64,000 nt of DNA, taken from contig OY740804.1 in NCBI GenBank assembly GCA_963514005.1, positions 14,880,001 to 14,944,000 on the forward strand, written 5' to 3'. The notes below the pieces were generated by a model. It made no database searches, was not told where the DNA came from, and saw only the letters and a program-made list of their open reading frames with translations. Both the position numbers and the translations under genes were made by a program. Shown here in pieces: positions 12,168 to 60,699 of the stretch; position 1 is the first letter of the stretch; the number at the start of each line of letters is the position of its first letter. The DNA comes from Raja brachyura (Eukaryota).

Positions 12168-12183
12168 TAACCTACAAAATCTG

Positions 12184-14181: not shown

Positions 14182-14188
14182 AAATCTG

Positions 14189-25777: not shown

Positions 25778-25958
25778 TTTAAACACGTCTTAATTTTAGA
25801 CCCAACACCATTCCAGGAGCTACCAATGAAGGTCCCAACCCAAAATGTTGCACCCTTTCCAGTTTGCTCTGCATTTGTGCAATTTATAGGGACACTTTCA
25901 TTTTGTTTTAACAACAGCACGGAGGTTGATCATTGATTCTGAAATCTGTTCCTCGTAG

Positions 25959-39004: not shown

Positions 39005-39551
39005 TGACCTTATAACCTTATCCATGTTAATCATTCAATATAACCAATATAACCTTATCCATGTTAATCATTCTTGATGGGTGTGCAGAGTGAATACTAC
39101 TTTATCTCTATTACTAAAGAGTGGAAGATGAATGGGGTTGTTGTGGAGTAGAAGGAAGGAAATTAGGTAGAAAAAAGGGATGGAAAAATATGATCTTGGG
39201 GCAGAAAAAGAAAAGTGGGGAAGGGTAGCAGGTGAAAAGGAGAGAGAGAATGGGTAGAGCTTGAATGGCGGTTTGGAGGATGAGAGAAAATAGAAGAAAT
39301 AGTGAAGGACAAAAGGAGGACAAGTTGTAGAGATGGTAAAGGGAGCCTTAAGAGACAAAATAATGTGTGTAGGAGGAAAACAGGGATATGGCGTATTAAA
39401 AAGGAAGGAAGCAGAATAGCAACATTGACTAGAGCAAAGTATGAGGGAGCAATTAGAAAATATGAGAGGAGGAGAAGGGCATGGATATAAAAATGACAGG
39501 TAAATGAAGTATTGAAGAAAGAGCTATATAAATGAAGTATTGAAGAAATAT

Positions 39552-39592
39552 GATGGTCTGAAGAAGGGTTTCGGCCCGAAACGTTGCCTATC
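39552..39592 (+). ncRNA. minimal type I hammerhead ribozyme motif of Penelope origin
   Basis: gatggt-CTGAAGA-a-gggt[ttcg]gccc-GAAA-cg-TT-gcctatc: conserved core, stem II with UUCG loop, palindromic AACGTT stem III, stem I arms pair. Confidence 0.65.
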
Positions 39593-42585
39593 TCCTTCGC
39601 TTCTTAGATGCTTCTGCACCCGCTGAGTTTCCCCAGCTTTTTGTGTACTATTGATGAAAGAGAGTAGTTCTGATTTATGAAGGGAAATTGGAGAATGGAC
39701 TGCAAGCAAGGTGAAGTTAGATGGAATGGTTGAAAATATTTGGAGAGAAGGAAGAGAGCACCACTTTGGGAAGCTCCAGAATAGCGAATGTAAGAATAGT
39801 GTGGGAGAAGATCATAAAGATAGGATGGGAAGGAAATATAATGGTTGTAGGATGGGGCAAAGGAAGATGAAGAAAAAGAGAGGAGAGAGTCAATGGTCAT
39901 GGTAATGAATGCAGAAACATGTTGGGAGTCTCTCACCAAACTTAAAGATATACAATGGGATTGTAGTGAATGGGCACTCAGCTGCTCCTGTGGAATCTGT
40001 TGGGAATCAAATTCCTGAGATGGACAGAGACGGGGGAAGAAAGACTGGATGGGAGGAAAAGGAAGAGTACAAGAATAGTTGGGAGTAATGTGGAGAGAGG
40101 AAGTTGTGCAGAAAACAAAAGGAATGAGAGAGAGGGGAAAGAAAGAGGGATTTACAGAGAAGTGAGGAGTATGGAGTAAATGGGGTACAAAGAGGCTTGC
40201 ACAGAGATAGGAGAATGAAGAGTGTTTTACTATCATATGTATCAAAACGGGATAATGAAATTCATACTTGCTGCAGCACATGTTTGTAAACACATTACTC
40301 AATAGATAATATAATATTGAGATATATCAAAGGCCCAAGATCTGGATCTAATCCATTATTAATTCATATGCTTTGGATTAGAAACATAGAAAATAGGTGC
40401 AGGTGTAGGCCATTCGGCCCTTCGAGCCAGCACTGCCATTCAATTATGATCATGGCTGATCATCCAAAATCAGTACCCCATTCCGGCTTTTTCCCCATAT
40501 CCCTTGATTCCCTCAGCCCTAAGAGCTAAATGTAATTTAATCTGACTTCAGTCTGACTTGGCAATAAAAGAGGTAGAAAAGAAAATCAATATTGAAATCA
40601 GATCTGTCTCCCTCCAAGGGTTCAGACTTCTCTCTCCAAGGGTTCTTTTTGTTGTAGCTACCCTAAAACATGTCTAACATGCAAGCTTAACAATGAATGT
40701 CCAAACTATTTTTAGAAAACTGAGGATGTGAGAATCTGAATTTGTAAGATGTGTCTCCTGCGCTCAGGACCCACATTTCTCACAATACGGCTGTTCACTC
40801 TGTGACCGAATAATTTTTCTCTGGGTTTTCCGGTTTCTTTCCACATCTCAAAAATGTGGGGGGTTGGTAGATAAATTGACAAGTATAAATTGCTACTGTT
40901 GTATAATTCGATTACACAATTGATGGGAATGTGATGGGAAGGGTGGAATTGCTCGGTGAGCCATAATGGACTTGATGGGTTTAATGACCTATCTACGTTG
41001 TATGAAAATATGTGCAATTGGTAAATGTTGTACAGAGATCAATGTATGCAAAAAATCTATACGTCAGTTAGGTGCAAATGTTTTTGCAGTCATTAAGCAT
41101 CGGTGAGGAGATAATATAAGCAGTTTAATCTGTACCTGAAGAGGTACGAGTTAATCAAACTAATGAACTGCTGCTGCTAATTTACAATAAAAAACAAAAT
41201 CTTGGAGTAACTCAATGGGTCAGGCAGCATCTCTAGAGGACATGGGTAGCCAACATTTCGGGGTGGAAACCTTCATGCTATTTGTAGTAGGGGGCAGAAA
41301 CCATGAAAAGAGGTGAAGGTAGGATGAAGCCTGGCAAATGATAGGTGGATACAGGTAAAGGGGATTTTGTTTCCCACATCGGTGGACAAAGGGTAGAATT
41401 AAAAAGGAGACAAAAGGCTTTCTTCTTCTTCTTGCATATGGCATGCACAGCCTAAAGTTGTAGGACAACTTGTTCTATTTGATCTTATGTGATTGTGCAC
41501 GCCGGGTTGATTGCATTCGTCAAAACAGGGCGGACCACGTGAAGGTCGCATTCTTCCACCCATCAAAAAGCTACAAGAGAGAAGAGGAGTGAAACACGAA
41601 GCCAGAGGAAGCGATGTAGGTGGAAGAGACAGAAGAAGAGGAAAGTAAGGCATGACATGAGCAAATAGGCTCCATGTCGGAGAAGGTAAAGGGATCCAGG
41701 CTAATTTTGGCAAATTGGATCTTAAATTGATATGGTGACAGGAAGCAGACAGTAATAGTGAAGATAGACAAAAAATGTATTGTAGGAGGACTGTTAACAA
41801 TCTGATATGCACAATTAGGTAGGACTCTGGGAATTACTAAGGAACAGAAAGACTGAGATGTACATGTACAAGGATCCCTGAAGGCAGCAAGACAGGTAGA
41901 TACGGTGGTTAAGAAGGTACAGGGGCTACCTGCCTTCATTTGCTGGGGCAGACACTGTATGAGCAAGGAGATTATGGTTCAGCTTGATAAAAATTGCTTG
42001 GTGGACTACAACTGAAGAAGTACATGGTTCTGGTGTCACACATTTGGAAGGATTGATTGGATAGAGAATTGGAGTCACGGAAGGAAGCAGACGGTGATGG
42101 TGGAAGGTTGTTTCTTGGACAGGTGGTCTGTGACTAATGGACTGCCTCCATTAGCAATGGATCAGTGCTGGGCTCTTTGCTGTTTGTCGTTTTTTTATCA
42201 ATAATTTGGATGAGAATGTACGTCATATTTATCGTTTGCATATGACACAAAAGGCATCGTAGGTTATCGAAAATTGCAGCAAAATCTTGATCGGTTGGGC
42301 ATGCGGGCTGAGGAATGGTTAATGGTGTTTAATACAGATAAATGCGAGGTGTTGCATTTTGGGAAGTCAAACCAGGGAGGGGGGATCTTTGCATGGCGAA
42401 GGCTCAAGTGGGAACCTGACTGAGAAGCATAAATGGGCTAGACAGTATTATAACAAACTATAACAAGAAAACAGTGTTTTAAAAGAAATTGTAAGAGATT
42501 TAGAGGGCTCTTGCACTTTTACACCACAGGATGATTAAAATCCGGACCACAGTGCTTGAGGGAATGGTGGAGGCAAGCACTCTAA

Positions 42586-42881
42586 AGGGCCTGTCCCACT
42601 TAAGCAATTTTTTCGGCGACTTGCCGGCACCTGTCATAGCTGCAGTAGGTCGCCGAAAGTGTTAAAAATGTTGAAAATCCAGCGGCGACCAGAAAAAGGT
42701 ACGACTCTTTGGGCCACATGTCACGGGGTGACGTCTGTATGGTTGTGAGTAGTGGCCCAAAGAGTCGTGCCTTTTACAGGTCGTCGCTGGATTTTCAACA
42801 TTTCGAAAATTGTCGTCGACCTGCTGCGACAGACGGATGCTGGCAACTCGCCGAAACATTTGCGTAAGTGGGACAGGCCAT
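42586..42881. mobile_element. PIF/Harbinger-like MITE
   Basis: TIRs AGGGCCTGTCCCACTTA / TAAGTGGGACAGGCCAT, extensively palindromic interior, TAA on the left flank; inserted in a CR1 3' region. Confidence 0.75.
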
Positions 42882-43812
42882 TTGCAACATTTAAACACTT
42901 GAAATGCCATGGCATGGCTGTGCATAGACTAAGTGCGGGGAAATAAGTACGATGACTGACATATAAATACTAGATCAAGGGGTGTGTTTCTATGCTGCGT
43001 GATTCTATGGTTGCTCACTGATCTCACTTTTCAGGATTTCAGAAGATTATTGTATGCACCAATGTGCCTGTCCCTGCAGAGCTCCACGGGGGAATAGCTT
43101 GGATTAGAGCAGCAAATGTCATGGGAACTAACATTTGGCATTAGGGTACAGCAGTCAGGTAGAAGGGGAGCTTGCTGAGCCCTGTAACTGAGATTTCTTC
43201 CCAATCTTCCAAATTTGAGAGAATGAAGATAACAAATAATATGCCACCCACTAGGTGGCAGCAACAGTAGAAAGAGAAACAGTCAAAGGTTTCAGTCAAA
43301 GATCCTTCATCAGAATTGAAATCATGACAAAACAAGTTAGTTTTCAGTTGAGGATGCGAGGATGGGGATTGCGAGGATGGGGATTGACTGATAGAATAAA
43401 GGGAATATCTTAGTTAGGGTAAGACTAGGATTCCCTTCGTATTATCCAGTTTACAAATAATTCCAGTGAATATGTTGTTTAGGATTGTTAGGGAGAGTAA
43501 AAATAAAGAGAGAGGTAAAAGCTTTGAAATACACGTGGGAGCCAACGAAAACTGAAACCAAAAGGAATGCTGGAAATGCCAGTGGAATAGTATCTGTGGA
43601 GAGTTAAAAAATGAATAATATTACAAGCGGATAAACCTTACAGCAGAACTAGCTATTTCGGATACAAACAGAGAAAACAAGTTCACTGAAATTGTTGAAT
43701 ATGATGTTGAATGCTGACAGCTACAACTTGACCAGATAGAAGGCTTGGTGCTGTTCTCCAAGCTAACATTGGGCGTTGTTGGAATAGTGCAGGAAGCCAC
43801 AAAGAGGTCGGT

Positions 43813-44692
43813 AGGGGCGCTGCAATCCAGCAGCCCTGCCAGCAGCGTGTTAGTTTTTTCAACTTTTAAAATTTTTTTAGTGTGTCATAATGTGTGTTTA
43901 CAATGTTTCTTTGTGTATCTTGTATGGGGGGGTAAGGGGGAAACCGTTTTGGTCGCCTCCTCCACGGAGAGGCGACTTTTTCCATGTCGCCTCCCCCGTG
44001 GCCTAACAGCAAGGTTCCACGTGTGGCCTTTCCCGGAGACGTGCCCGGGGCTTCAGCGGCGGGTGCAGCGTGGACTCTCGTTGCGGAGTGGGCGAGCCCT
44101 CGCCGGAGGGGAGGGTCCGCGGCAGTCTGAAGCTGCGGTCTGCGGAGCTCCAGCTGGCGCGCGTCCGCAGCATGGGATCCCTCATTGGGGACCCAGGAGG
44201 AGAAGAAGCTCCGACCGCCGGCCCGTGGCCTACTTCTATCGTGGGCGCGGCGGTGATTTACCATCGGGAGCGGGGTCCCTCATCGAGGACCCCTAGAGAG
44301 GATCTCTGACCGTCGGCTTTGCGGTCTGCAGTGCTTCTGCCTGCGGCATGGCGGGGACTTTAAATCTTCGACCTGTGGCCTACACCAACCTGAAGCCGTG
44401 GTCTCGGTGGGGAAGCACCAATTCAGGACTTGCCTGGACTTTATCTTGTCTGAACATCTGGACGCCCGCAGCGGCGGCTACGGAGGGTTGAGGTCTCGAC
44501 CCCGGGAAAAAATGGAGGAGGACTGGGCAAATTGTGTGCCTACCACCACAGTGATGAATGCTGTGGTGGATGTTTGTGTTAAATTTTTAGTATGTTTTTT
44601 GTGTGTTCTTTTTTCATTGTACCGCTGCTGGCAAAGTCATATCACTTGCACTTTATGTGCAAGTGATGAATAAAACTGATATTGATATTGAT
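43813..44692 (+). mobile_element. non-autonomous LINE-derived element with GC-rich core and (GATATT)n tail
   Basis: same architecture as 25161-25777; interrupts an older Penelope-like remnant (~43250-45460). Confidence 0.55.
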
Positions 44693-45469
44693 AAACAGAA
44701 GGTCAGAGTGGGAGTGAGATAAGAAATAAAAGTGATAGCTAACAGGAAGCTCAGGGTTATTCCTAAAGACCGAACAAAAGTGCTACTGAAGTTATCACCT
44801 ATCTGCATTTGGTTTCTCCAAATAAGAGGAGACTACATCGTGAGCAATATAAGCTGTACACTACAGTGGTAGAAGTACATGTAAAATGCTGGTTAACCCT
44901 GATAGGACATTTTGAGCTATGAGATGGTGGCAAGGGAAGAGGTACCAATGCATTTGTTACATGTACTATGGTTGGATGAGAAAGTGCTATGAGAGGGAAA
45001 TGGTTTCGCCAGACTTCTGAAAGGATAGGAAAGGATATTGTTGTTGTACTGCAGATCCATTGAATGCAGAGGCGGGTGGACTGGAAATTGAGGACCTGAG
45101 GAACTCTATCCTGGCTCTGGTCCAGTGCAAAGGAGGGAAGAGCAGAAGAGCAGATGTAGATTATAGGCAGCAGAGAGCTTAATCAACTATGTTAGACTGG
45201 AAGGCATGATTAATCTCAGAGGTCTTGTAATCAGAGCTGATATGATGAGGTCGGAGGAACTTGGCGAATGGAATGAAATCCTTCCAGGAGGCAGTGGGAG
45301 GAAGAATAGTCAAGATATTTGTGAAAGTCTATGGGTTATAATAGATGTTTGTTGCTGACTAATCCTCTGAAATGGAAGACAGAGATCCAGAAAGGGAAAG
45401 GAAGAATCGGAGATGTGATGGGTGCAGCATGGTGGAAATTGCTGTCAAAAACAAATTGTCAAGCTCCAT

Positions 45470-46589
45470 ATGAGTGCAGAAAGCAAGACCTTCTACGCCT
45501 GCTTGGATGAGACACTGTCTAGAATCCCCAGGGAGGATAAGATTCTTCTCTTGGGAGACTTCAACGCCAGGGTCGGCCGGGACGAACATGTCTGGAAGGG
45601 TACCATAGGCATCGGGAACATCAACTCCAACGGAGCTCTGCTTCTCAGCAAATGTGCACAGCACGACCTCACCATCACTAAAACCCTCTTTCGCCAGAAA
45701 AACAAACTTAAGGCATCTTGGAGACACCCCCGCTCCAAACAGTGGCATCTCATTGACTGTCATTGTACGAGCCAGGGACCGCCGTGACGTGAACATCACA
45801 AGGGCCATGATTGCTGGACAGATCATCGCCTCATCCGCACCATGATGTCCATCAAACTCAAGAGGAAGAGGATTCAAAATAAGCAGATCCGGCCAAGGCT
45901 GAAGCTTGAAAGCCTAGAAGTAACCTACCGAGCAGCGACTTCGGGCTTCTCTTGTGGAAAGCCTCCAATAGGAATATCCTGATGACATTGAAGAGCACTG
46001 GAAACGGCTCAAATCCACCATCCTTGATACCTGCAAAACGATCTTTGGGTGCAATTCCAGAAAACATCAGGACCGGTTTGACGAGAACGACAGAGATAGA
46101 ACAGCTCATCTCCAAGAAAAGGAAAGCCTTTTTTGCCTGGCAAAATGATGTAACCTGCAAGGCCAAAAGAGAGGCTCACTCCAGAGACAAGACGAATGTC
46201 CAGAGTCGGGTGAGGGAGTTAAGAACTCTTGGTGGGCAGAAAAAGCTCTGGAAATCCAGAGACTGGCAGACTCGGGTGACACCAGAGGCTTCTTCAGCGC
46301 TACTAAGGCCGTCTATGGTGCAAGCTACTACGGTGTAAACCCCCTGCTCTCAAAGGACAGGCAAGAACTGCTGAAGGACAATGTCCATAAATGCCCAATG
46401 GGAGGAGCACTTCCAGGAACTCCTCAACTGTGACAGCACAACTGAACCAGACATTACCGACCACATTCCGCAGAGTCCCATCAGAGAAGACACCGAAGAA
46501 CCTCCCACTATGACAGAGGTTCAAGATGCCATCAAGAGCCTTAAGAACAACAAGGCCACCGGTCCTGATGGGATCCCAGCTGAGATTTT
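45470..46589 (+). mobile_element. RTE-clade LINE, 5' part (endonuclease and tether)
   Basis: FY..LD......DKILLLGDFNARVG, N.NG..LL..C, WRHPRSKQWHLID, LKNNKATGPDGIPAEI. Confidence 0.9.
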
Positions 46590-47624
46590 CTTTTTTAAAA
46601 AAAAAAAATTATTTATTTATTTAAATTTTTTATTAGAAGTAATGTACAATAATATAAACCAAAAATAACATAGTACATTTCATGTACCACTTCTTGTTTT
46701 TAAATTTAATAATAGAAAAGTATCAGGAGCAAGAAAAAGAAAAGTAGAGAAAGTTAATTAAGATAGTGATATTAATAGTATGTGAAAAAGTGGAAAGAAA
46801 GAGCCCATAAAGATGTAAAGCCCGAGAAAGAGAAAGAGAAGAGAAAACAGAGGAAAATATAAATAAAATAAATTAAAATAAAAGGGATATACCTGCTTCG
46901 TGTCTTTACACCCCTCACCCTGTCCTGAAACAGTTTATTTACAGAATTATATGTTGCACCTTATGCTTGTAATAAGTCGATAAATAGAGACCAAATCTTT
47001 AAGAATTGGTCTGATTTGTATGCTAGGACGAATCTCATGTCTTCGAGGTGTAACGTTTCAGACATATTTGAAATCCACATTTTTAGCGTTGGTGTCGGTG
47101 TATTTTTCCAGAATTTAAATTTAAGTATACATTTTTTTGCCGTTACTAAGCCATAATTAAGGAAACTCTTTAGGAACGAAGTCAGCTCAAAGCCGGCTTC
47201 CATTGTTCCAAAAATAATCAGTTCTGCGTTGGGTTTCAGTTTTATTTTAAATAATTCTGTAAAAATTTCAAAATTTAATTCCAAAATTTTTGGATTTTTA
47301 TGCAAAAAACAAAGGAATGTGCCATGGTTGCATCTTGAGATAAACATTTATCAGAAATGGGGGAGACATTTGGAAAGATTTTGTTCATTTTAGTTTTCGA
47401 ATAATATAATCTATGTAAAATTTTGAATTGAATTAAGATATGCCTTACATTGATCATTTATGCACATATAGCAAGTATTTATCCCATCTCTCTTTTGACA
47501 TTTTTATAGATAGTTCTTGTTCCCAATCTCTTCTAATTGTGTCAGATGATGGTATTTCTATATTTAAAATGATATTATACAAGTATGATATTAAGTTAGT
47601 TGAGTCCGCCTTTCTGTTCATAGC
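46590..47624 (-). mobile_element. L1/Tx1-like LINE 3' fragment A
   Basis: IQFKILHRLYYSKTKMNKIFP....(C)DKC.....T..H.F..C zinc knuckle and F.KIW..FI C-terminus; A-rich 3' tail toward 46590. Confidence 0.85.
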
Positions 47625-49475
47625 ATATTTATTTTATTAGAAGCAATTGTACAAGGAGAAAGTAATCGACATAACAATTATACAATTTTAGTACAGCTTC
47701 AGTTTTAAGATTTTACGAGACCAAGTGCAGACCCATTGGGTCTGTTCCCCCAACGTGTAGTTGCAGGAGGGGGGGGGGGGGCTGAGGGAGGCGGCATGCG
47801 GCGTCACATACACTAACTACCCCCGCATACACACTAACTACCCCCTTGATATATTAATATTGTTAATTTGCTCCTTTTACCCCATAACCGCCCTATCCAC
47901 TGACACATAGCCCCCAACTCGCAGGTCCGTCTAGAGAGGGGGTGGGGGGGGGGGTAGAGAGTGTGGGCAGAGAGAGAACGGGGAGATACGGAGAGAGAGG
48001 CAGAGACAGAAGGGCAGGAGACAGAGGGAGAGGGAGGAGAGGGGAAGAGAGAGAGGGGGCTTAGAAGGGGGGAGGGGGAGGGGGAGTGGTGGGAAAGGAG
48101 GGGGAGAGGTGGGGTAGAATGGAGGAGAGAGGTGGAGGGAAAATAGTAGGAGTGTGGAGGGGTGAAGGGGGTTTAGGGGAGGGAGGGTGGGGGAGGGCAG
48201 GTGGTTGGGGGAGAGAGAGGGAGGGGGAGAGAGGGGGGAGATGAAAGAGGGGGGGAGGGAGAGAGAGGAGAGGGGGAGGGGGAGAGAAAGAGTGAGGAGG
48301 GGTGGGGCGGCAGACCGAGCGCAAGGCACGGAGCGATCTGAGGACGGTGAAAAGCAGCAGGGGGACCAGCCGATCGTGGCGTCCACCAGCGTGACAGAGC
48401 CGGGCCAGGCCGGGGGGGGGGGGGGGGGAGTGGAGGAGAGGGGAGTAGGTGAGAAGAGATGTGGGGGGGGGGGGGGGGGGACCGGGCTGCCAAATGAAGA
48501 GGGGGAGAGAAGCGGCATCTGACTCTGGAAGCCCACAGGTGGAATGAACGCGCAGGGCTTCACGAGCTGCGCCAACAGTGATGAGAAAATTCAGCGTGTG
48601 ATCCTATAGCGGAACAGAGCTGTATGAGGATAACTTATGAGGAGTAGATTCAGCGCATGAGGAGTCGCTGGCCCAAGATCTGTAGAACAAAGAAGCTATA
48701 GCGGAACGGAGCTGTAGAATGTTTGTTCTGCAGAACTTTCTCGATCTTTCTGCGCATTCAATCCACAGCGGGGGGGGGGGCCTGGAGGTAGGTGGGCGTG
48801 GATTGGTGGGCATGTGGGCATTGTGACGTCAGCAGCTGGCGAGCGACGTTTATATTTAAAAATTTGAGTTTTGTGATCAATTTTATTCAAAATCTGGGGA
48901 AATAATTGACCAAGGAGTGGATTTCTGAACGCAAGTTAAATCCCTACCGAAATTGTAAAAATCTCTGCGTTTTTGCGTCTGGTTTTCGAGGAGATACGTT
49001 TCACGTGCAAATTAACACACACACACATTCACACCGAGTTTTAAAAGCGTATAGATATGATAAACTAATAAGTAAATCAGAAAAAAGGAAAGAAGGGAAA
49101 GGAAGAAGAAAGGAAAATAAATGAAAGAATTTCTTTCAGTGGAAAAAAAAGTGGAGAGATATCCCACTACCCTTCCCTACACCCGCTCACCCGACCCTAG
49201 CGTCGGTTTTGAATTTGTGTCAACCAAATTCAATGAAAGGAGACCATATTTTGGAAAATGGATCTGATTTGTCAGACAAAACAAGCCTTATTTTTTCTAA
49301 ATGTAGTGTCTTGTCATTTCTTTGATCTACGTCTTCACTATGGGAACTGTTATCTTTTTCCAGAGTTTAAGTTTTTTTGCAGTTATTAAACCATAGTCAA
49401 GGAAGCGTCTTTGGAATATCGTTAACTTAGGGCAGCCCTCTGACATTCCTAACATTATTAATTTTGAATCTGACT
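47625..49475 (-). mobile_element. L1/Tx1-like LINE 3' fragment B (interrupted by a Helitron at 47716-49055)
   Basis: FLDYGLITAKK..LWK motif; 3' end shares ttattagaag with fragment A; whole L1 block bounded by CCAGCTGAGAT(T/C)TT at 46576-46589 and 49476-49489. Confidence 0.75.
47716..49055 (-). mobile_element. non-autonomous Helitron
   Basis: minus strand: A|TCTATAC...hairpin CAGACCC-AAT-GGGTCTG...CTCG|T; no TSD; removal gives contiguous ttttatatgat. Confidence 0.75.
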
Positions 49476-49514
49476 CCAGCTGAGATCTTAAAGGAAGGTG
49501 GACCGGAACTCCTG

Positions 49515-52455
49515 TAATAATAATAATAATAATATATTTTATTGTCATTACACATAAGTACAATGAGATTTGGTTTGCAACTTCCATCCGATGTCATAAC
49601 TTAATCGACAAATAAAATTTAGGTTTAGATACCCCGAGAACAAGGTTTATAAAAACGAACATTAGACCAGTAACATCAACACAGACTAAAGTGTGAGGCT
49701 GGGGGAGACAGTCCATGGGGGTGGGGGGGTACTCAGCAGGGCCAGTTCAGAGCCGCTATAGCTCTGGGAATGAAGCTGTTCCTGAGTCTGGAGGTGCGGG
49801 CATAGAAGGCCTTGTAACGTCTGCCGGAAGGGATTAGTTCGAACAGTCCATTACAAGGGTGAGAGGAGTCTTTATGTATGCTGATGGCCTTCCTGAGGCA
49901 CCGTGTGTGGTAGATGCCCTCCAAGGCTGGTAGCGGTGTCCCAATAATCTGTTGCGCTCTGTGGACAATGTGCTGAAGTGCTCTCCTCTCCGCCTCCGTG
50001 CAGCTGAGATACCACACAGAGATGCCATACGTTAATATGCTCTCTGTGGTGCAGCGGTAGAAGGTCGTCAGCAGCTGTTGGGGCAGACCAGTCCGTTTGA
50101 ATGTTCTTAGGAAGAACAGTCGTTGTTGTGCCTTTTGGACCAGCGCAGCGGTGTTGGTGGACTATGAGAGGTCCTCTGAGATATGAGTGCCCAGAAACTT
50201 GAAGCTGGACACTCTCTCCACACTGTCCCCGTAGATGGAGATTGGGGCGTATTCCCCATTCAGTGACGTCCTGAAGTCGATAATCAGCTCCTTGGTCTTG
50301 GAGGTGTTTAGCGACAAGTTGTTCCGTGAACACCAATCCGCCATGTTCTGCACCTCCACTCTATAGTTTGTTTCATCACCGTTGGTGATCAGCCCGATCA
50401 CCGTTGTGCCTTCTGCAAACTTGACAATGGTGTTGTTGTCAAATGCAGGGACACAGTCGTGGGTGAAGAGGGAGTAGAGCATGGGGTTCAGTACACAACC
50501 CTGTGGTGTGCCGGTGCTCAGGGTGATAGTAGAGGACAGGTGCGGCCCCAGTCTCACTACCTGCGGTCGCTCCGTCAGAAAATTCAGGATCCAATCGCAT
50601 ATCAGTGAGCTGAGGCCTAGCTGGTGGAGTTTGGTGGTGAGCTTGGTGGGGATGACTGTATTGAAGGCAGAGCTATAGTCAATGAAGAGCATCCTCACGT
50701 AGGTGCCCTGTCTTTCCAGGTGGGTCAGGACAGTGTGAAGAGCCACAGAGATGGCATCCTCTATGGATCTATTTGCCCTTTATGCAAATTGAGAATCCAA
50801 TGATGCAGGGATGCTGGATTTGATGTGGGGGAGGACCAGTCTTTCAAAGCACTTCATTGGCATTGGAGTTAGGGTAACCGGGTGGTAGTCATTCAGGTTG
50901 GTGACTTTAGACTTCTTTGGCACCGGCACTATGGTAGCTGTCTTCAGGCACATGGGGACCGTTTCCAGAGATAGAGGCAGGTTGAAGATCCTCGTAAATA
51001 CCTCCGTACAGCACAGTGCTTTAGTACCCTACCCTGGATTCCATCCGGGCCTGCAGCCTTGCGTGGATTGATCCTACGCAGAGCGCACTATACCTCCTGT
51101 GTGCTCAGTGTTAAGGCCTGTCCCTCGCCATGGTCGGGGTTGTTCCTCTCCTGGTGGTGCTGCCAGTTTCGAAGCGTGCGAAGAATGTGTTTAATTCATT
51201 GGCCAGTGTGATATCACTGTGGGGGCAGGTGGGGCTGCTCTTGTAGTCAGTGATGTCCCTGACACCCTGCCGTAAGCGTCTCGTGTCCGCGGTGTTGAAG
51301 TGGTCTTCCACCCTTTGCCTCTGGATGTCTTTGGCCTTTTTTATGCCTTTGTTCAGGTTTGACCTGGCAGCACTGTAGGCAGAAGTGTCCCTGGATTTAA
51401 AGGCAATGTTGTGTGCCCTTAGCAGATTCTGAACCTCCTCGTTCATCCACGGTTTCTGGTTTGGGAACATCTTTATTTGCTTGTCCACTGTGACAGTCTC
51501 CACACAGCAGTTGATGTAGGAGAGCACAGTGGATGTGTACTACTCCAGGTCTACCTCTGTGCCACTGGTAGCCTGTTGTGCAAACAGGTCCCAGTCGGTG
51601 CGATCAAAGCAGTCCTGGAGTTGTAGGGTGGCGTCCTCGGGCCATATTTTGACCGTCTTTATTGCAGGTTTGGTCTTGCGGATGAGGGGTTTGTATGCAG
51701 GCAGTAGAAACAGTGAGAGGTGATCGGATTGTCCCAGGGATGGGCAGGGGAGGGCTCTGTACGCGTCCTTGATGTTGGTGTGCACTTTATCCAGCGTGTT
51801 TGAGCCCCTGGTAGGGCACTGCACATGCTGGTGGGATTTGCGGAGTGCAGCTCGTAGGTCCACCTGATTAAAGTCCTCTGCAACAATGAAGGCACCATCG
51901 GGGTGAGCATCCTGCTGCTTTCTGATGGCCGAGTGCAGCTATGCTAATGCTAGGTTAGCATTAGCCTGTGGTGGGATGTGTATGGCCATGATGATAATCA
52001 CAGTAAACTCCCAAGGCAGTTAAAACGGCCTACATTTAAGCAGTAGGTATTCCAGGTCTGGGGAACAGTAGCTTTCTACTGCAGTGTGGTTGGTGCACCA
52101 GTCCTTGTTGATATAGATGCAGAGCCCGCCGCCCATGCTTTTACCGGAGTCCTTTGGTCTCTCAGCACGATACAGTGACCGGCCGGTTAAGTCCACAGCC
52201 CCGTCGGGAACCAGCGCGCTGAGCCAGGTCTCTGTGAAGATCAGCACACAGCAGTCTTTCAGGGATCGCTGGGTGTTGATCTTCACAGAGACCTGGCTCA
52301 GCTGGGTGTTGATCCAGAGCCTCACCTCATCCAGCTTGTTGGTGAGTGACCGGACATTCGATGGAAAGACGCTTGGTAGCGATGGTCTTTGTGGAGCCCT
52401 CCGTAGCCTGTCCTGCACCGCCGCTCACCTTCCACGTTTCTGCTTCCTCTCCCGG
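49515..52455 (-). mobile_element. near full-length Rex1/Babar LINE, decayed
   Basis: [83 protein letters not shown] (FADD mutated), PSGRRY; (TTA)n tail. Confidence 0.93.
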
Positions 52456-53888
52456 TGCATTACCACATCCACGCTCTACTCCTCCAGGTCTGGGAAAACG
52501 ATCTCCCCTCAGAACTCAGTGATGCTCTAATAGTGACCATTTTCAAGAAGGGGGACAAGGCTGAATGTGGAAACTACAGGGGCATCTCGCTCTTGTCAAC
52601 AACAGGCAAAGTCCTTGTTTGTGTCCTCGCAAACCAACTTCTACCACTGTCTGAAGAGGTACTTCCAGAATCACAGTGTGGCTTCCGCCCATCTAGAGGT
52701 ACAGCAGCCATGATATTCACAGCATGCCAACTCCAGGGAAAATGTTGTGAACAAAAGCAGCCTTTGTGCATGGCCTTCATGGAGCTGATAAAGGCTTTTG
52801 ACTCGGTAGACCATATTATCAAGGTATGGTTGCCATGACAAGTACATCAGAATATTGAGGCCACTACATGATGGCACGTTGGTCATAGTGCTCAGCAACT
52901 GCGGCTCTGAGTCCAAGTCCTTCACTGTGGAAACGGGGGTCAATCAGGAATGCATCATTGCACCCATCCCGTTTGTCATCTTCATTGCTGCCATACTTCA
53001 CCTCATTAGTGAAGAGCTGCCACAGGGGATCCCAATCCGCTACAGAACTGACGGTGGGCTCTTTAACCTTAATAAGTTGAAGGCCAAGAGCAAAGTCAGT
53101 GACACCGCCATCATGGAGCTTCAGTATGCGGACGACTGCGCCATTGCAACACACTCCGCAGAAGACCTCCACGACACCCTGAATGCCTTTGCCAAGGCAT
53201 ACAGAGCCATGGGCCTAGCCTTAAACATCAAGAAGACCCAGGTCCTACATCAACCTCCACCCAACTAGCCATCTACCCAGCCCACTATAAAAGTGGACGA
53301 CTATAAAAGCTGACATCGACTCTGAGGTCAACCATCGCCAGAGTTGTGCCAGTGAAGCCTACGCCAGACTCGGGAAAGAGTCTTTCAAGACCGAGAGATA
53401 AAGGCTAAAAAAAAACATGCTGGTTTACAGAGCCGTTATCCTCCCCACTCTGTTGTATGGAGCTGAGTCATGGACCACTTACAGCAGGCACCTGAGAGCC
53501 CACAGCGGGGTCAAAGAAACGTTTCAGGGACAACATCAAGAGTCAAGAGTGTTTTATTGTCGTATGTCCTGGATGGGCAATGAAATTCCACATCACATCG
53601 AGCAACTGGGAGCACATTGCACTGGACAAGCGCTCCTAGAGGAAATCCGTGCAGGAAGAAACTGCATGTCATGAAACGGAACTACGCCGTGTCGCAGAGA
53701 CAAAGCGACGGCACCATAAGGAGAGAAAGAAGGGGGCTCGACGACTACCAACCACCGCCAGTCTCCACTGCACGCATTGCACCAAAGTGTGCGCATCGGC
53801 CTCTACAGACATCTGCAGACCCACAAATAGACAACCGTATGGAGAGGAGAGGCCAGTCATACTCGTTTAGAGTGACCGCAGATGATGA
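52456..53888 (+). mobile_element. RTE-clade LINE, 3' part (RT and C-terminus), continuing 45470-46589 and 49490-49514
   Basis: IVTIFKKGDKAECGNYRGISLLS, LPESQCGFRP.RGT..MIF, KAFDSV, LQYADD, YRAVILPTLLYGAESWT; GATGATGA tail. Confidence 0.92.
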
Positions 53889-54425
53889 GCAATATATCAA
53901 TGTACTGGAATAAAGAGTTAAGGAAAGAGATTCTGAGTATGACTGAAATAAGGAATATCAATATCACTCATCTCTAATCATGTTTAAAAATGTGTTTTTC
54001 TGTTTAGTGCGTCACACTGATAACTTTACACATTTCCATATTGCATCACATCCGCCCTGTTCTTCCCACTTACTCAGTCATGAGCACCTGAGAGGCCTAG
54101 CCTCGCAGAAACCAGGTGGGCGCCAAGTGTGAAGCACCACAGCATATTAGGGGCTTTCCAAGAGGGCGGTGGAGGCAGGTTCTCCGGATGCTTTCAAGAG
54201 AGAGCTAGATAGGCCTCTTAAAGATAGCGGAGTCAGGGGATATGGGGAGAAGGCAGGAACGGAGTACTAATTGGGCATGATCAGCCATGATCACATTGAA
54301 TGGCAGTTCTGGCTCGAAGGGCCTTATGGCCTACTCCTGTGCCTATTGTCTATTGGGTCTAACTTAACTGAATTCTGCTCAAGATGTATATCCCTATGCT
54401 TTACCCTTACTAAGCTGAATAAATA

Positions 54426-54691
54426 CAGTGCATTCAGAAAGTATTCAGACCCCTTCACTTTTTCCACATTTTGTTACGTTACAGCCTTATTTTAAAATGG
54501 ATCAATGCTTCCTTTTTTTATCATCAATCTACACACAATAGCCCTGAATGAAAAAGCGAAAACAGGTGTTTAGAAATGTTTGCAAAGTTATTAAAAATAA
54601 ATAACTGAAATATCACATTTACATATGTATTCAGACCCTTTACTCAGTACTTTGTTGAGGCACCTTTGGCTGTGATTACAGCCTCAAGTCT
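54426..54691 (+). mobile_element. solo left end of a second Tc1-family (IR/DR) element
   Basis: TA + CAGTGCATTCAGAAAGTATTCAGACCCC with inner repeat GTATTCAGACCC at ~54627; no matching right end seen. Confidence 0.8.
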
Positions 54692-55719
54692 AAGGGGTTG
54701 GGAAAGATAAAAAATTTCACATATTCAAATATGTTGTTACGAATATAACTAGTAGTGTAGGCGAAAACTCCATGAGCCATAATTGCCACATACATACCCA
54801 AAAGTAGAAATGTAGAAAGTTACAGTGTCTCCTTGTACCAATCAAGTGAGAAATTCAAAATTCTATATTTTGAAAATGGGCAAAGCAAAAAGTAGCATGT
54901 TCTCTAAAAAGGCTTATCCTAAAATAATTGATCAGGAGGGTGTGATTTTCAGTCAGTACGTCTGTATCAATCAGTCAGTGAGCTCACGGTCCGGAACCCT
55001 TCTCTATTACCCCACTACATAAAAACAAAGTGTTAATGCCTCTTCAAGGTCTACTAATCCACCCGTAGCTTCAGTTGCAGGTACAGCTGAATGGATTTGG
55101 CGCTTGGGCGACGCTATGAATGTATATGAATTTTTAAAATCCGATATGTTTAAATCATTCAAAAGCTACAACCACAACGTGATAAATAATACTAAATAAA
55201 ACTGAAGCAAATAAAGGCAAACAGAAGAACTAACCTTGAAGGTGAGAGAAAACAACACACATAAACTTATTTTTAAAAATTCATATAACATCCCTAAATG
55301 ACGGGTACAAATTACTAAATAACGTGGGTGAACAAAAATGCTGGAGAAACTCAGAGAGTTAGATGCTGCCTCACCCGCTGAGTTTCTCCAGCATTTTTGT
55401 CCACTTTCGATTGTTCCAGCATTTGCAGGTTAGCGGGCCAGGCGGCATCTGCGGAGGGAACGGACCAGGAGCCGCCACGGCCAGGGCTCCCCCCGCCCCC
55501 CCAACAGGAAGGAACCGCAGATGCAGCGTCTCTGCAAAATGCCGAATGATTCCGGGAATGCTGAGGCGAGAGGGTCAGAGAGGGAGTGATGGAGCGAGAG
55601 AGAGACGAGATGGGGAGCGCGAGAGAGCGTGCCAGATAGAGAGGGAAGGAAGGAGAGGTTGAAATGCAGATAGACACAGTGAGAGAGGGAGAGATGGAGA
55701 GAGAGGGAAGAGAGCGAGA

Positions 55720-55795
55720 GAATAATAAAATAACGTGGAATAATAAAATAACCTGGAATAATAAAATAACCTGGAATAATAAAATAACGTAACTT
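55720..55795. repeat. 18-bp minisatellite (AATAATAAAATAAC(G/C)TGG) x~4
   Basis: directly visible tandem copies. Confidence 0.85.
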
Positions 55796-56481
55796 TACCT
55801 GCACACCAGTAGAAGTCCCTGCTCGCGGTCCGGAGCCTTGTCAGTGAGTTTTAAGAAATTCCCCCGTGAATTGTATTCAAAGGAACGCGGCGTCATTAAT
55901 ACATGGTCAAAACACAATTACATTTACTGAGGAATGTGGATCAATGTATTGGTGACACATTGTATAACTGTTAAGTGCTAACACTGGTAGTTAACAAATC
56001 GTTTTCGTGTCATGGCCGATGCAGTGGTGACTCGTAACGATTATCCATGGTCGTTTAAAAAGAAAATCCGTATTTAACAACTCTGACTCCCTTCTTGTAC
56101 GGAAATTGGACATAAACTGAAAAGTAGGGGAACGCTGTCTACCTGCGTACCCCCCCATTTCCATTACTGAAAATATACTAGTTCTGTATTTTTAGTTTAA
56201 AATGGTGCTGGATGTGTTTTTACTGAGCAACAGATCAAATAACTACATTGCCTCTCTACCTAAGGGAAGAGGCTGTAACCTTGTTTGTAGAGAAAATGTG
56301 TTTTATGTTTTAAGTACAGCTAGGAATAAATGTACTAAATTTGAGCTGAATAAATTTTAAGATTTGATATTACGAAAAAGAAACTAAAGTTTGACTAATT
56401 AAAAAAATGTTACATTGAACCAGCTTTAGAGTATAGCTTCTCTGTGTCAGCATCCATTTATGAACATTTTTATATTTGTAG

Positions 56482-56569
56482 AGGAGGCTGCATTGGCACT
56501 TGGTAGGAAACGGCCAGCATCTAGTGCACGCACTCAGCAGGAAGAGGAAATGGACGACATTAATGTTGG
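56482..56569 (+). CDS. SYCP3-like next coding exon (88 bp): (E)EAALALGRKRPASSARTQQEEEMDDINV(G)
   Basis: acceptor tttttatatttgtAG (56480-56481), donor gg|GTatga (56570); phase 1 start matches the 38151 donor with an open frame; basic RKR, acidic run, then VG, as in SYCP3 just before the (G/N)EVQ.ML motif. Confidence 0.7.
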
Positions 56570-57324
56570 GTATGACAAGCTGAACAATAATTTTGTTGAA
56601 TTTTTATAGATTTTGTAGTTGATGCGGAATATAGTGAACATTGATACAGATCTCTGCTATCTTGCTTAAAGCTCAGGATATGTTATCCAGGATTGAGAAA
56701 AGCAGTACAATCAAATGTAAAAGTGGAAATTATAGCATTACATATAGAGTGAGACACGTTACCAATAGCTGCTGTACTAAGAAACTGGCATAGACTAATG
56801 TCTTCACTGCTGCTGCACACTGCATACCAGGAATTTAGTTGAGGACTCCTGTAAAATGAAACGGTTAAAGTAATCTAATGGCCATGCAGCATCATTTAAA
56901 ATGAGTCAAGGTCATGTGCAGAGGTTGCCTGTGAGGGCTGGTTTTAGGTAGGCTGGGGTAAATGAAGCACATGCTCAGCATTGAGATGCAAGGCTTGCAT
57001 GCTGAGTATGGGCGCCATTGGGATATCTGCTCCATATTTTGTCTTCTGTCTGAATCGTATGGTCTTTATCAATAATTCTTGTTGGAGGTGTTGGAAACTA
57101 TTGCTCCACCCATTTATTTACTGGATGCATAATTTTTTTCCAGCCTGTGACTTCTTCATGGAACAAGCTTAACACCCACAACAACCATTGAATTTGTTAG
57201 CATGGAAAAATTTCTGGGTTATGAGAGCCCTGATTCTTGATACATAGTGTATTCCTGAACCCTGCGTCTCAAGGCTGAGTAGCTACACTGCTCGCCTTGG
57301 CTCACCCAACATCAGCTCTCAAAT

Positions 57325-57830
57325 AGAAACAGAAAAACTGCAGATGTTGGAATCCTGAAGTGCTGGAGGAACTCAGCAGGTCTGGTAACATCTATGGAGA
57401 AAATGCATAGATGTTTAGGGTCAGGAATTCTCCACTTTCAAGTGATGTCACCCTACTCCTTCCCCTTCTTTCACACACTTATCTCAGTCCCAATTCCCCC
57501 ATGTCCTTTCGGTCTCCCCTTTTTCCTTTCCCCTTTCTATCCATATCCCTCCCTCCAGTTTTACATTTCACTCCTTTTATCACCTTGTCTGACACTCATT
57601 TGTCTCCTTTTCACCTCTAGTCTTGTCATTTACTACACCTATCTGCCAATAAATCCCCCCTCACCTGCATTCACTTGCTGGGCTTTGTTCTGCCCCCACC
57701 TCTGCTTTCCAGTGCCCTGTCCCCTACTTCTGTCAGTGCGAAAAAGGGTCCCAAACTAAAACATTACGTATATATCCATTCCCTCCACAGATGCTGCCTG
57801 ACCTGCTGAGTTCCTATAACACTTTGTGAT
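57325..57830 (+). mobile_element. decayed Penelope-derived element with inverted termini
   Basis: ctgcagatgttggaatc..gtgctggaggaactcagcagg at the left end and its inverse gatgctgcctgacctgctgagttcct at the right end. Confidence 0.6.
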
Positions 57831-59339
57831 CAGCTTTCACATGCAGCCTTTATGTCTCAGAAATTAGCACCACATGAAGCCTCGTGATGATGAGATCACT
57901 GTTGTATTGCTGTAGGAGCACAATGCAGACTGAACAGATGTATTTTTAACGTACTAAGAGAATATACCTGTCCGTGTTCAGTTTCCAGGGCTAAGAGAGC
58001 TGTTATGAATGAGTGCTCTGCGGAGTAGCACAAACCGTTGTACCATTTTATATTTGAATTCAAGGATAAAACTGGAATTGAGAGTAATAGGACATTCGTT
58101 CAAAAAATGTGCAAACAAACATGAAGAGGAAAGGTCTGTGTTTGGTTATTATTTGAATAACCTAATGTAATTTCTGATTTTTTGCATTTGACACTTATTA
58201 TCTACCTAATTATCTAGCTAATTATCACAACATTCAATAAAAAATAAGACAAGTTTAATGATGGGGTATCGGTAATTTAGTTTAATTTATTATTGCCATG
58301 TGTACCGAGATACAGTGAAAATACTTGCTATCTGGTCAAATCATATTGTACATGGGTACAATTATGCACAAGTAAAAGAGTGAAAATACTGTAAGTAGAT
58401 CCTCTTCTGGGATAGCCAGCAAAGAGTCGCCTAGCTCCGGAGCCATCTTTCAACTTTTGAGTCTCAAGTCTCTGAAAAGTCCAATCTTGGCCAAAGGAGA
58501 TATGCACATTTTTATTGCTTCACTTTAAACCTCAGTGACCTGGTGGCACTGAATCGATGAAATAGAGGTTGGCCTGGCCCAACACGATGCTGTCACCTCC
58601 TTCTACCTCCCCTGTTCAATCTGCTTGATCACCGGGCTTCTGTAGGGTCTCCAGTAGCCACCTTCACCAACAACTATGCCATCCATTGCCTCCCACAGCC
58701 ACACCTCCACTTCCTTCTGCCAAGGAATTTTAGAGCGCTTTCTGAGGTTGTGGGAGGTGAACTCCCAGATTGTTCATCGCTACTGACTTTCCCTTGTACC
58801 TTCCATTGCCACCATCCTGAGAATGTTGTTGAGAAAATGTCCTAATCTTTTTTTTCACATTAATTTAATCCTTGAGTGCGTGAGTACAAATAGTTAAAGC
58901 CAGAGAAACAATTTCAACAATTACGTTTGATAAATAGAAATACACATCCAACTAGTTAATGGCAGGCAGTTGGAGGGCAGATGTACTAAGGACGAAATGC
59001 AGTATTTTGAGGAACAATTAAAAGTCCTGTTACCCCCTGACTGCCAACTCGATTAAAAAGTGCCAGATAAGGCCTGAACTTGACAGCTGGGGACCGGAGG
59101 AAGTGATCCCTGAGAGATAAATTATAAAGGTTAGCCTGAAGATCACAGTGAGATTACAGATATTATCAAATCAGGAGATGAAAAGCCAGCTGCGGTGGAG
59201 AAGTTCAATGATTGATAGAAAGTTTCCTGCCCCTCCTCATACAAAGAACAACTCTAAAAGCATAAAGACTAACATACCACTTTTTCTTCTTATCACTTGC
59301 TGCACCTGCATCAACAACACATTTAATTAAACAAGTAGT

Positions 59340-59491
59340 AGGAAAGAACTGCAGACTGGTTTAGATCGAAGGTAGACACAAAATGCTGGAGTAATTCAAC
59401 GGGACAGGCAGCATCTCTGGAGAGGAATTAAACAGGGTGATGTTTCGGGTCAAGACCCTTCTTCAGTCTACAGCGTTTTGTGTCTACCTTT
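59340..59491 (-). mobile_element. short Penelope-derived insert with hammerhead core
   Basis: 14-bp TSD ATTAAACAAGTAGT (59326-59339 and 59492-59505); minus-strand CTGAAGA-a-gggt[cttg]accc-GAAA-c-ATC at ~59435-59466. Confidence 0.8.
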
Positions 59492-60699
59492 ATTAAACAA
59501 GTAGTCTTCTATTACATTCACCAAAATGGATGAATTCATATTTTTCTGCATTATATTCCATCTGCCATATTGTTCCCACTCACCTTATTCATAATCCCCC
59601 AAAGCCTAATTTCATCCTCTTCCATACAATCCTACCTAGATTAGTAATATCAGGCTTAGAAATAGAACATTTGGTTCCCTTAACTAAATTGTTGATATAG
59701 TTTGTGAATAGCTGGGGTCCAAATGCTGACACCTGCAACACCGTAATGCTCACAGCCTGTCTAAGAAAGATTCCTACATTTGTTTTCTGACTGTTCCTTA
59801 ATTCTCATGGAGTCGTATAGCACAGAATATTTCCGTCAGCCCACTATGCCGTGCTAACTACCAATACCAGTCTATACTAACCCTTTTACAAGCTTGGTCT
59901 GAAATTTTCCATGCCTTAGTTAAATGCTCACGTGGATTAATCTTAAATATTGTGAGAGCACCTGCCCCTGTCACCCCTTCGTGTCAAATATATCAGGCAG
60001 GTTTTGTTTGTTTTCCTTCATGAAGACAAAATACGACATAATTTCTTAACTTCTCTGCTATTTCCTTATTTCCTATTGTACATTCTTCTTTGTTCATCTG
60101 TAAGAGGCCTACTTTTACCTGCAGGTCTTTCAATTTGTACATACTTATGAAAGTTCTTATAGTTCATTTTTATGTTTGTTGCCAATCTATCCTCCTATTT
60201 CATCTTGCATTCCTTCATCTATCTCTTGCCAACTTTAATCTCTCTTGTTAACCATAGATGAATTACTTTTCCTTTTGTGCCTTTATGTCACTTCTTCTGT
60301 AGTTTGTGTATTTTTTCTTTTCGTGTTAGGCATTGTTTGTCCACAGTCATTCCTTTCAATATGTTCTCCAAATCCACTACAGCCAACTTACCTTCCTTAC
60401 CTCATAGATTCCTGTGTTTAGATTTAAGACCCTTATTTTGCATTGAAAGACATTGCTTTCAAACTTAATTTAAAATTATATCATGTTAAAGTCATTATTT
60501 CCCAAAAGGAAATTATAATCATGAGAGAACAGGGCTAGTTTTCCTATTGCAATAAAGATGGAGTAGGTTTAATAAAGGGATTTAAATTAAGGATAATTTT
60601 TTTTAAAAGCTCCTTCGCTAGCAACAGAAACGGGTAGGAGGTAGGGCAGACAGGGACCATTATACATGACAACAACTGACCAATGCTATATACAGGTAA

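Follow-up and report, generated by a model that had tools for sequence, protein, structure and literature searches.

The 64-kb window, meaning the whole stretch of DNA analysed here, likely belongs to a ray or skate and contains coding exons of a host gene that we take to be SYCP3, from the Cor1 domain of a relative (E 2.5e-51) and from known SYCP3 sequence features. Its first coding exon was located only via this relative; three heuristic exon scans of the window either missed SYCP3 or returned one exon only. In and around the large intron lie Penelope relics and short inserts carrying hammerhead-like cores, which are arranged as follows:

4896..5122, no single strand: insert D, 227 bp, 14-bp TSD, two head-to-head arms
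6288..6752, minus strand: insert E, 465 bp, 14-bp TSD
11789..11888, minus strand: tail-only insert, 100 bp, 12-bp TSD, 5′ end approximately at the predicted cut site
12175..14188, minus strand: 5′-truncated, broken Penelope-like element with an RT + C-terminal GIY-YIG relic at 14188-12545
31865..31939, minus strand: tail-only insert, 75 bp, 17-bp TSD
36200..36652, minus strand: older-family dead core 36256, with 5 core changes
37203..37415, plus strand: insert F, 213 bp, 15-bp TSD
38005..38151, plus strand: first coding exon of SYCP3 (ATG at 38022), the host gene, outside the element
38152-56481, plus strand: SYCP3 intron, 18.3 kb, holding copy A in sense
39549..39648, plus strand: short pseudo-LTR arm, copy A, the sole intact minimal type I hammerhead in the window
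39552-57/39586-92, plus strand: copy A stem I
39558, plus strand: copy A core C3
39566-77, plus strand: copy A stem II
39581-84, plus strand: copy A palindrome
41190..41414, minus strand: copy H, with 3′ UTR, dead core ~41279 and tail, antisense in the SYCP3 intron
43250..45490, minus strand: older Penelope relic, thumb/GIY-YIG at 45490-44699, ORF end at ~43683
55328..55464, no single strand: tail-only pieces in inverted arrangement
56482..56569, plus strand: next SYCP3 coding exon
57330..57837, plus strand: locus G, with inverted half-core arm, ORF end, spacer, dead core and tail
59340..59491, minus strand: insert B, 152 bp, 14-bp TSD, direct arm plus short inverted stub

An earlier note, made from the same DNA, had reported recurrent CTGANGA..GAAA motifs, and a pattern search recovered them at its positions, 39558(+), 59466(-), 43313(-) and 4988(-). 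The bare pattern is not above chance, with 9 matches against a shuffle mean of 5.2, and 9 reached in 10 of 100 shuffles; five of the nine (1697, 8559, 23198, 27324 and 45979) were rejected as non-members of the repeat family. A structured pattern (core, 4/4 stem II and GAAA-NN-U-H) gave 2 matches versus a shuffle mean of 0.02, and the same pattern with palindrome and stem I added gave one, at 39558, versus none in 100 shuffles. The degenerate copies previously placed at ~6350, ~12270, ~37230 and ~57735 proved real, and we found additional ones at 4990(+), ~41279(-) and 36256(-), together with a half core at ~57437(-). The repeat family, represented in the window by 18 fragments, has a unit of ~100 nt composed of core and tail; its final profile yielded 18 matches at E<=0.05, versus one (E 0.17) across 20 shuffled windows. 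An Rfam scan of the window returned no hammerhead at gathering score, nor among its 17 weak matches at E<=10, which is weak evidence either way, because the Rfam hammerhead models are canonical. A covariance model built from 12 copies regained those 12 by construction and nothing further below E 0.3 in the window, and no copies of the repeat were found in GTDB genomes (two exact-pattern scans) or in plasmids (blastn).

The Penelope origin proposed in the earlier note holds, as the repeat is linked within the window to RT/GIY-YIG relics. At four loci (cores 12298, ~6379, 57738 and 43313) it follows the end of an RT/GIY-YIG ORF by 196-370 nt; core and tail following the ORF end, as in the element at 12175..14188, show that the repeat is the 3′ pseudo-LTR of a Penelope-like element. 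The relic at 14188-12545(-) aligns along full-length RT+GIY-YIG proteins (of 7 tblastn queries, the best six have E values between 1e-100 and 7e-69). RVT_1 is detected on the window ORF at E 0.003, and the six best protein matches of the ORF come from Hypanus, Mobula and Chiloscyllium. In the closest protein relatives a Cys-rich linker precedes the endonuclease, a feature named for Neptune/Nematis in 10.1101/2021.04.23.441226, and the window elements, which are EN+ Penelope-like elements, are likely of the Neptune type. None of them is full-length or intact. The carriers had been described as non-coding, which fits the short inserts for the most part, but not all of them: two carriers form the terminal part of long RT/endonuclease relics, and another two contain the last ORF codons.

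The 14-bp TSDs reported earlier are present at 4882/5123, 6274/6753, 59326/59492 and 39510/39649 (two with one mismatch), and further TSDs measure 15 bp (37188/37416), 12 bp (11777/11889) and 17 bp (31848/31940). Overall, TSDs flank 7 of 13 boundary pairs tested, whereas 7 of 149 random pairs reach at least 12 bp; they are 12-17 bp long and 73% AT, compared with 56% for the window. Among 11 TSD-bounded arms, the positions of the 3′ ends are bimodal, six lying 3-10 nt and five 38-50 nt past a common motif. The two ends are ~35 nt apart, and each of the 4 inverted loci carries one of each. They match the one-ended “tail” of 30-40 bp described for Penelope-like elements in 10.1101/2021.04.23.441226, and the two RT start sites of a Penelope-like element in anole (PMC11167929).

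Individual loci combine these parts in various ways. In insert B, the direct arm has a core at 59466-59439 with 13/13 core bases, an AUC site and the long 3′ end, with palindrome and stem I lost, and the inverted stub bears the short 3′ end. The arms of insert D meet at a quasi-palindrome centred on 4989; the minus-arm core 4988 has G at position 17 and is not cleavable, and the plus-arm core 4990 carries C3>T and A13>G. Insert E consists of the last Penelope ORF codons, a pyrimidine-rich spacer, a core at ~6379 (C3>T) and the short end, and its inverted arm is tail only with the long end. Insert F runs from an inverted stub through a dead core at ~37229 (4 core changes) to a second piece, which is tail only and has the long end. 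The element at 12175..14188 continues into a 247-nt spacer, a dead hammerhead at 12298 (A9>G, G10.1>T, G12>A) and then the tail, while the older relic at 43250..45490, broken up by another insertion, ends in the older-family hammerhead 43313 (C11.1>T, palindrome lost). Core 36256 adjoins an inverted GIY-YIG fragment at 36569-36652(+), and locus G has a pyrimidine-rich spacer of 292 nt and a dead core at 57738 with 5 core changes. Neither core nor TSD was found for the pieces at 55328..55464. The main piece of the tail-only insert at 31865..31939 begins, by eye, near the predicted cut site, and the target of the one at 11789..11888 has microhomology to the cut-site sequence.

Copy A lies in an insert, 39524-39648, which contains a re-copied piece of the target and is bounded by a TSD at 39510-23/39649-62. 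Of the 12 aligned copies, it alone keeps 13/13 core bases together with NUH, both stems and the palindrome of helix III. The minimal type I architecture proposed earlier is supported. Its stem I, with 3 bp and another 3 bp beyond a bulge, is better than that of its relatives, which typically have 2 bp. The UUCG cap ascribed to stem II is there, but its closing pair is U.G, and hence it is not the extra-stable tetraloop, which is C(UUCG)G. The cut predicted after 39585 is correctly placed in the sequence, GUU qualifying as an NUH cleavage site (PMC3138052). Trimmed to a 41-mer, copy A has a hammerhead-like predicted minimum-energy fold; fold z-scores of copy A lie between -0.95 and 0.27.

The other copies are in various stages of decay. 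All 13 core bases are kept in 3 of 12 aligned copies, and only two (39558 and 59466) have an intact core, a stem II closed by G10.1-C11.1 and NUH; the palindrome replacing helix III also persists in two (39558 and 12298), accompanied by an intact core and stem I only at 39558. Mismatches are as frequent in the core as in the tail (23/130 vs 103/604, p=0.90, 10 copies; 18/117 vs 92/549, p=0.79, without the half-core copy), the tail being compared to one majority sequence across subfamilies in a single window. Intact 13-base cores number 3 in 10 copies versus ~1.1 expected from tail divergence, an excess which mixed ages and subfamilies can explain, although some cores may have been spared. The earlier note expected covariation in the stems, yet across these 12 mostly dead copies the score is at shuffle level (0.165 vs 0.167, with 255 of 500 shuffles as high). 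The stem II variation said to preserve pairing is one-sided (U.G/U-A), with two-sided changes in none of 4 pairs. One stem I pair does show a two-sided change between old and young families, which points to selection having acted on the parent elements. Since cores decay like the tail and covariation is at shuffle level, the window holds a fossil field rather than the very large ribozyme population suggested previously from the motif count, with one of 12 copies retaining every feature.

Taken together, these data make it very probable that the motifs are hammerheads of Penelope-like 3′ pseudo-LTRs, likely carried as passengers of 5′-truncated insertions and likely decaying neutrally. Counting against this reading are the surplus of intact cores, the stem I and 41-mer fold of copy A, the two-sided stem I change and the clustering of 5′ junctions described below. 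By analogy with published Penelope work, the protein of the element would nick AT-rich DNA, and two internal sites, ~65 and ~100 nt downstream of the cut site, would serve as alternative starts of reverse transcription. Most cDNAs would end prematurely, and microhomology would often help to join a second cDNA, made on the opposite strand. The hammerhead would be copied in a large share of insertions because it is so close to the priming sites. Its proper role is likely to have been in the tandem transcript of the parent, where it would have worked as a dimer or been assisted by protein.

The sense placement of copy A within the SYCP3-like intron, pointed out earlier, is correct, and the note had suggested that it cleaves pre-mRNA through dimerisation. 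By dimerising with a second hammerhead and cutting the SYCP3 pre-mRNA, copy A would tune a meiotic gene. It does have 13/13 core bases, GUU, the palindrome and both stems in the sense orientation, its partners in trans may be many, and the element's protein can switch on a PLE hammerhead (PMC11167929). However, every other sense core in the window is damaged (4990 with 2 core changes, 37229 with 4 and 57738 with 5), leaving no intact sense partner there. In a native context of 55-201 nt, stem II of copy A is predicted to form with a probability of 0.01-0.21, because the core pairs with a downstream pyrimidine run, and the z-scores given above also count against cleavage. Compared with two monomers, the active dimer is predicted to be less favourable by 3.6-15.7 kcal/mol, and two copy A 41-mers would prefer a wrong duplex (-27.6 vs -15.3 kcal/mol); these energetics are prediction only, since nearest-neighbour energies ignore core contacts and proteins. 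Published minimal monomers were uncleaved and dimers weakly cleaved (PMC4209133), and 8 of 9 Xenopus dimers were uncleaved (10.64898/2026.07.22.740005). We consider such cutting highly improbable; copy A, probably inserted more recently or simply luckier, likely does not cut the pre-mRNA to a relevant degree.

The 5′ ends of the inserts bear on the template from which they were copied. At four of ten core-spanning loci (39549, ~59470, 4989 and ~37224) the 5′ junction lies 1-9 nt upstream of C3, while five others extend at least ~140 nt further and 36256 is unmapped. Clustering at the ribozyme's 5′ edge (post hoc P ~0.003 under a constant stop rate) is not what plain random truncation predicts, and it stands as a lead. 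The short inserts could instead be copies of a defined short template, an RNA starting or spliced just upstream of the core (at an initiator- or acceptor-like TCAG/T) or starting at the cut site, which would make a SINE-like solo pseudo-LTR unit. In long arms the pyrimidine-rich spacer (64-77%) stops 1-2 nt short of C3, with CAG or a close variant of it as its last bases. The Penelope intron of D. virilis extends to the 5′ end of helix I (PMC4209133), and two tail-only inserts begin at about the cut site. On the other hand, junctions 4989 and 37224 fall in TCAG microhomologies, a sufficient explanation for them, and the four short arms belong to different subfamilies without a common 5′ sequence. 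The cut-site starts were read by eye, the aligner having stopped at +11 and +12, the target at 11888 resembles the cut-site sequence, and in anole the cut is neither the start nor the end of any RNA read, uncleaved RNA being the main template (PMC11167929). We judge a defined template to be unlikely, if compatible with passenger hammerheads in Penelope insertions. As for RNA cleavage as the reason why tail-only inserts start at the cut, the coincidence falls short of significance (2 of 15 arms, P 0.10), and we treat it as a lead only.

Also unlikely is the extension that intact Penelope hammerheads number tens of thousands in batoid genomes, amid several hundred thousand fossils whose 5′ junctions record template RNA ends (one class at the ribozyme's 5′ edge, where the RNA would start or be spliced, and another at the cut site). 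If true, the fossils would record PLE hammerhead cleavage in vivo, and the role of the ribozyme, described as unclear for EN+ Penelope elements in 10.1101/2021.04.23.441226, could be tested by counting junctions; splicing might also restore stem I, in which case copy A and its longer stem I would be an example.

At a density of one core-bearing insertion in ~6 kb, a genome would supply the numbers needed to test cleaved or spliced RNA as a template. As passengers of Penelope insertions, the motifs extend a known rule, that minimal hammerheads occur at the ends of Penelope elements, to a dense elasmobranch family, in which motif counts overstate ribozyme numbers about tenfold.

Comparison with known systems involves, first, animal non-LTR retrozymes (PMC7229834; 10.64898/2026.07.22.740005), with which the inserts share the type I motif, long TSDs and pseudo-LTR kinship, and the earlier note had called them retrozyme-like. 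Amplification through self-cleaved circular RNA would suit short, largely non-coding inserts, and retrozymes, proposed to derive from pseudo-LTRs, have been counted in one chondrichthyan (10.64898/2026.07.22.740005). It is nevertheless most improbable here: of 40 tandem-repeat rows for the window, not one spans a hammerhead core, and without tandem units the retrozyme reading fails in the window. The only two-core insert is head-to-head, so that its cores are on opposite strands. Insert ends follow the two 3′ termini of Penelope rather than a cut-to-cut monomer, canonical helix III is absent from the alignment, and no loop-loop contact was seen. The domesticated hammerheads of amniote RECK and CTCL introns (PMC6155905) are likewise type I and sense in a host intron, but they are few, conserved and canonical, whereas copy A is one of many decaying repeats and TSD-bounded.

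Among the closest relatives are the minimal type I hammerheads in pseudo-LTRs of metazoan Penelope-like elements. Truncated PLEs carry single dispersed minimal hammerheads, silent as monomers and weak as dimers (PMC4209133), and the window family shares with them CUGANGA, the extra base before stem II, G10.1-C11.1, GAAA, a CG palindrome replacing helix III, a short stem I, H17 as C or U, and the location 3′ of truncated RT-EN ORFs, as well as widely solo occurrence. It differs in being from an elasmobranch, in its short stem II (4 bp) and in a stem I of 2 bp in most young copies; in the published set, the text of Fig. S3 has no cartilaginous fish among its vertebrate rows, and the supplement PDF does not contain the words “shark”, “Callorhinchus”, “Leucoraja” or “Squalus”. 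The anole Poseidon element PAc, which provides the mechanistic model (PMC11167929), shares with the window elements RT with a C-terminal GIY-YIG, 5′ truncation, inverted arms, a one-ended tail of ~35 nt and AT-rich targets.

The hammerhead motifs reported in the earlier note were borne out at their four main coordinates, both by the sequence itself and by pattern search. The bare CTGANGA..GAAA pattern showed no enrichment, with nine matches in the window against a shuffle mean of 5.2, and a structural descriptor combining the hammerhead core, 4/4 stem II and GAAA-NN-U-H matched twice in the window versus 0.02 on average in shuffles. With palindrome and stem I added, the sole match was the copy with its core at 39558 (+), and 100 shuffles yielded none. 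An iterated profile search of the window placed the motifs at the head of a ~100-nt repeat, the last round giving 18 matches at E<=0.05 versus one weak match across 20 shuffled windows. The core is spanned by 11 arms (direct or inverted repeat pieces within inserts) at 10 loci, and half a core lies in a twelfth arm (~57437). An Rfam scan of the window with canonical hammerhead models detected no copy of the family.

The Penelope origin proposed for these motifs is upheld by in-window linkage of cores to the ends of ORFs for reverse transcriptase (RT) and GIY-YIG. A broken ORF at 14188-12545 (-), with six best matches named from Hypanus, Mobula and Chiloscyllium, aligns along RT proteins with a C-terminal GIY-YIG domain, and is followed 247 nt downstream by a core; the corresponding distance is 196 nt at ~6379, 292 nt at 57738 and 370 nt at 43313. 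The names of those best matches make a ray or skate the likely host. Because such ORF ends precede cores at four loci, the ~100-nt repeat is the 3′ pseudo-LTR of Penelope-like elements (PLEs). The closest protein relatives possess a Cys-rich linker, a feature named for the Neptune type (10.1101/2021.04.23.441226), which points to a putative Neptune-type family.

Direct repeats of 12-17 bp with <=1 mismatch, 73% AT in content, were found at 7 of 13 boundary pairs tested versus 7 of 149 random pairs, and delimit inserts of 75-465 bp, four of the seven with an inverted arm. Measured past one common motif, the 3′ ends of 11 arms bounded by such repeats form two classes, six at 3-10 nt and five at 38-50 nt, with one end of each class at every inverted locus. 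These classes agree with the 30-40-bp tail reported on one end only of PLEs (10.1101/2021.04.23.441226), and with the two internal RT start sites described for anole Poseidon (PMC11167929). Two 5′ junctions (39502-39548 and 11889-11921) re-copy 19-nt pieces, of target or of target plus element, which suggests template switching during repair.

At 4 of the 10 core-spanning loci the 5′ junction lies 1-9 nt upstream of the first C of the core (post hoc P about 0.003 for the clustering); five loci extend at least about 140 nt further, and one is unmapped. TCAG microhomology alone suffices for two of the near-core junctions. Two inserts consisting only of the tail, the part of the repeat 3′ of the core, begin by eye near the cut site (P 0.10, not significant), and the target of one mimics the cut-site sequence. 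The long arms contain a spacer of 64-77% pyrimidine, with CAG or a near variant just 5′ of the core, recalling the D. virilis Penelope intron, which is reported to end at helix I (PMC4209133) and has been described together with the promoter (PMC2377424). In the long arms at 6576-6380, 12545-12298, 43683-43313 and 57446-57738, the region of the ORF stop looks like a splice donor that has decayed, and a CAG resembling an acceptor closes the spacer. An annotated relative (P0003) switches to other sequence at the last residues of the ORF, as if spliced at that point. Among the papers listed in the searches, none dealt with 5′ junctions clustering at a PLE hammerhead, judged by title or opening of the abstract.

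All 13 core bases are kept in 3 of the 12 aligned copies. In copy 4988 (-) position 17 is a G, which gives GUG, a triplet reported as non-cleavable (PMC3138052), and copy 59466 (-) has lost palindrome and stem I, leaving 39558 as the only copy intact by every criterion. Mismatch rates in the 10 younger copies were 23/130 for the core and 103/604 for the tail (p=0.90), or 18/117 versus 92/549 (p=0.79) without the half-core copy, the tail figure being inflated by subfamily differences in a way that would flatter the core; the two old-family copies were excluded because their tails align poorly. The core is not spared relative to the tail, despite this bias in its favour. Three intact cores versus 1.1 expected count against neutral decay. 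Stem II had been described as varying while keeping its pairing, but covariation across copies is at shuffle level (score 0.165 versus 0.167), and none of the 4 pairs in stem II has changed on both strands. In stem I, a single pair has switched from G-C to U-A in both old copies. The picture is one of parent elements under selection and inserts decaying neutrally. The core and the 5′ strand of stem II are predicted to pair with a pyrimidine run just 3′ of the cut site at 39558-39600, 12256-12300 and 59424-59466, a modelled alternative fold common to several copies that would keep the ribozyme off.

Assuming a genome of 2-4 Gb, and scaling from one window, 10 core-bearing loci per 64 kb correspond to 3-6 x 10^5 genome-wide, and one intact copy per window to 3-6 x 10^4 (Poisson range 0.025-5.6 per window). 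The very large ribozyme population envisaged earlier is not supported by this count: only 1 of 12 aligned copies is intact, and motif counts in the window exceed intact ribozymes about tenfold. With one window as sample, the family may be unusually dense: minimal motifs are reported at about 4,000 in coelacanth and 9,000 in Xenopus (PMC4209133), and retrozyme copies at up to 120,000 in axolotl (PMC7229834). A Penelope expansion is on record for shark introns (10.1101/443036).

Other repeats in the window
25958-26991, 28151-29180, 29338-30313, 60700-61736: ~1.03-kb repeat, four copies, 78-91% identical
2378-3007, 10611-11580, 23038-24639, 33440-35750: LINE relics, which we take to be of CR1 type
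45359-46338, 49733-52424, 52407-53268, 9150-9521: remains of further retroelements, with endonuclease and RT domains, plus part of a DDE_3 transposase

The ~1.03-kb repeat is MITE-like: it is CpG-rich and its termini are short and inverted. Three of its four copies lie within 4.4 kb. An ORF in a LINE relic (33896-34960) matches RVT_1 (E 8e-26), and a 163-N assembly gap (22556-22718) interrupts a purine-rich simple repeat.

A 31-residue query led to a 242-residue Cor1-domain protein that maps to exons 38022-38151 and 56482-56569. Since these flank it, copy 39558 lies, as had been proposed, in sense orientation in an SYCP3 intron, 18.3 kb long. A splice acceptor (38004-38021) sits 17 nt before the SYCP3 start codon, so a non-coding first exon is likely upstream of 38004; early in the intron, 38547-38717 holds a tandem 48-bp unit (3.6 copies, 91% matched). 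Helix III of a minimal hammerhead requires a partner, and the remaining sense cores in the window, where the gene is visible up to 64000, carry 2, 4 and 5 core changes. The trimmed 41-mer of copy 39558 has a hammerhead-like predicted fold (stem II probability 0.77); in 55-201-nt context this probability is 0.01-0.21, and the active dimer is predicted to cost 3.6-15.7 kcal/mol over two monomers, in energies that leave out core contacts and proteins. Published minimal hammerheads are described as silent as monomers and weak as dimers (PMC4209133; review PMC6765202), and the anole ribozyme as cleaving only with its protein (PMC11167929). Meaningful cleavage of SYCP3 RNA by this copy is judged highly improbable.

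The label “retrozyme-like” does not hold: retrozymes are defined by a tandem of hammerhead-bearing units (10.64898/2026.07.22.740005), and none of the 40 tandem-repeat entries for the window covers a core. The same source counts retrozymes in one chondrichthyan, and its supplements may already include the present family; no publication devoted to the elasmobranch family surfaced among the papers listed for the literature searched, which excluded most subscription papers and Repbase. The repeat behaves like a Penelope end, unlike a retrozyme, and the elasmobranch family is a newly found, mostly fossil example of the known Penelope hammerhead type.
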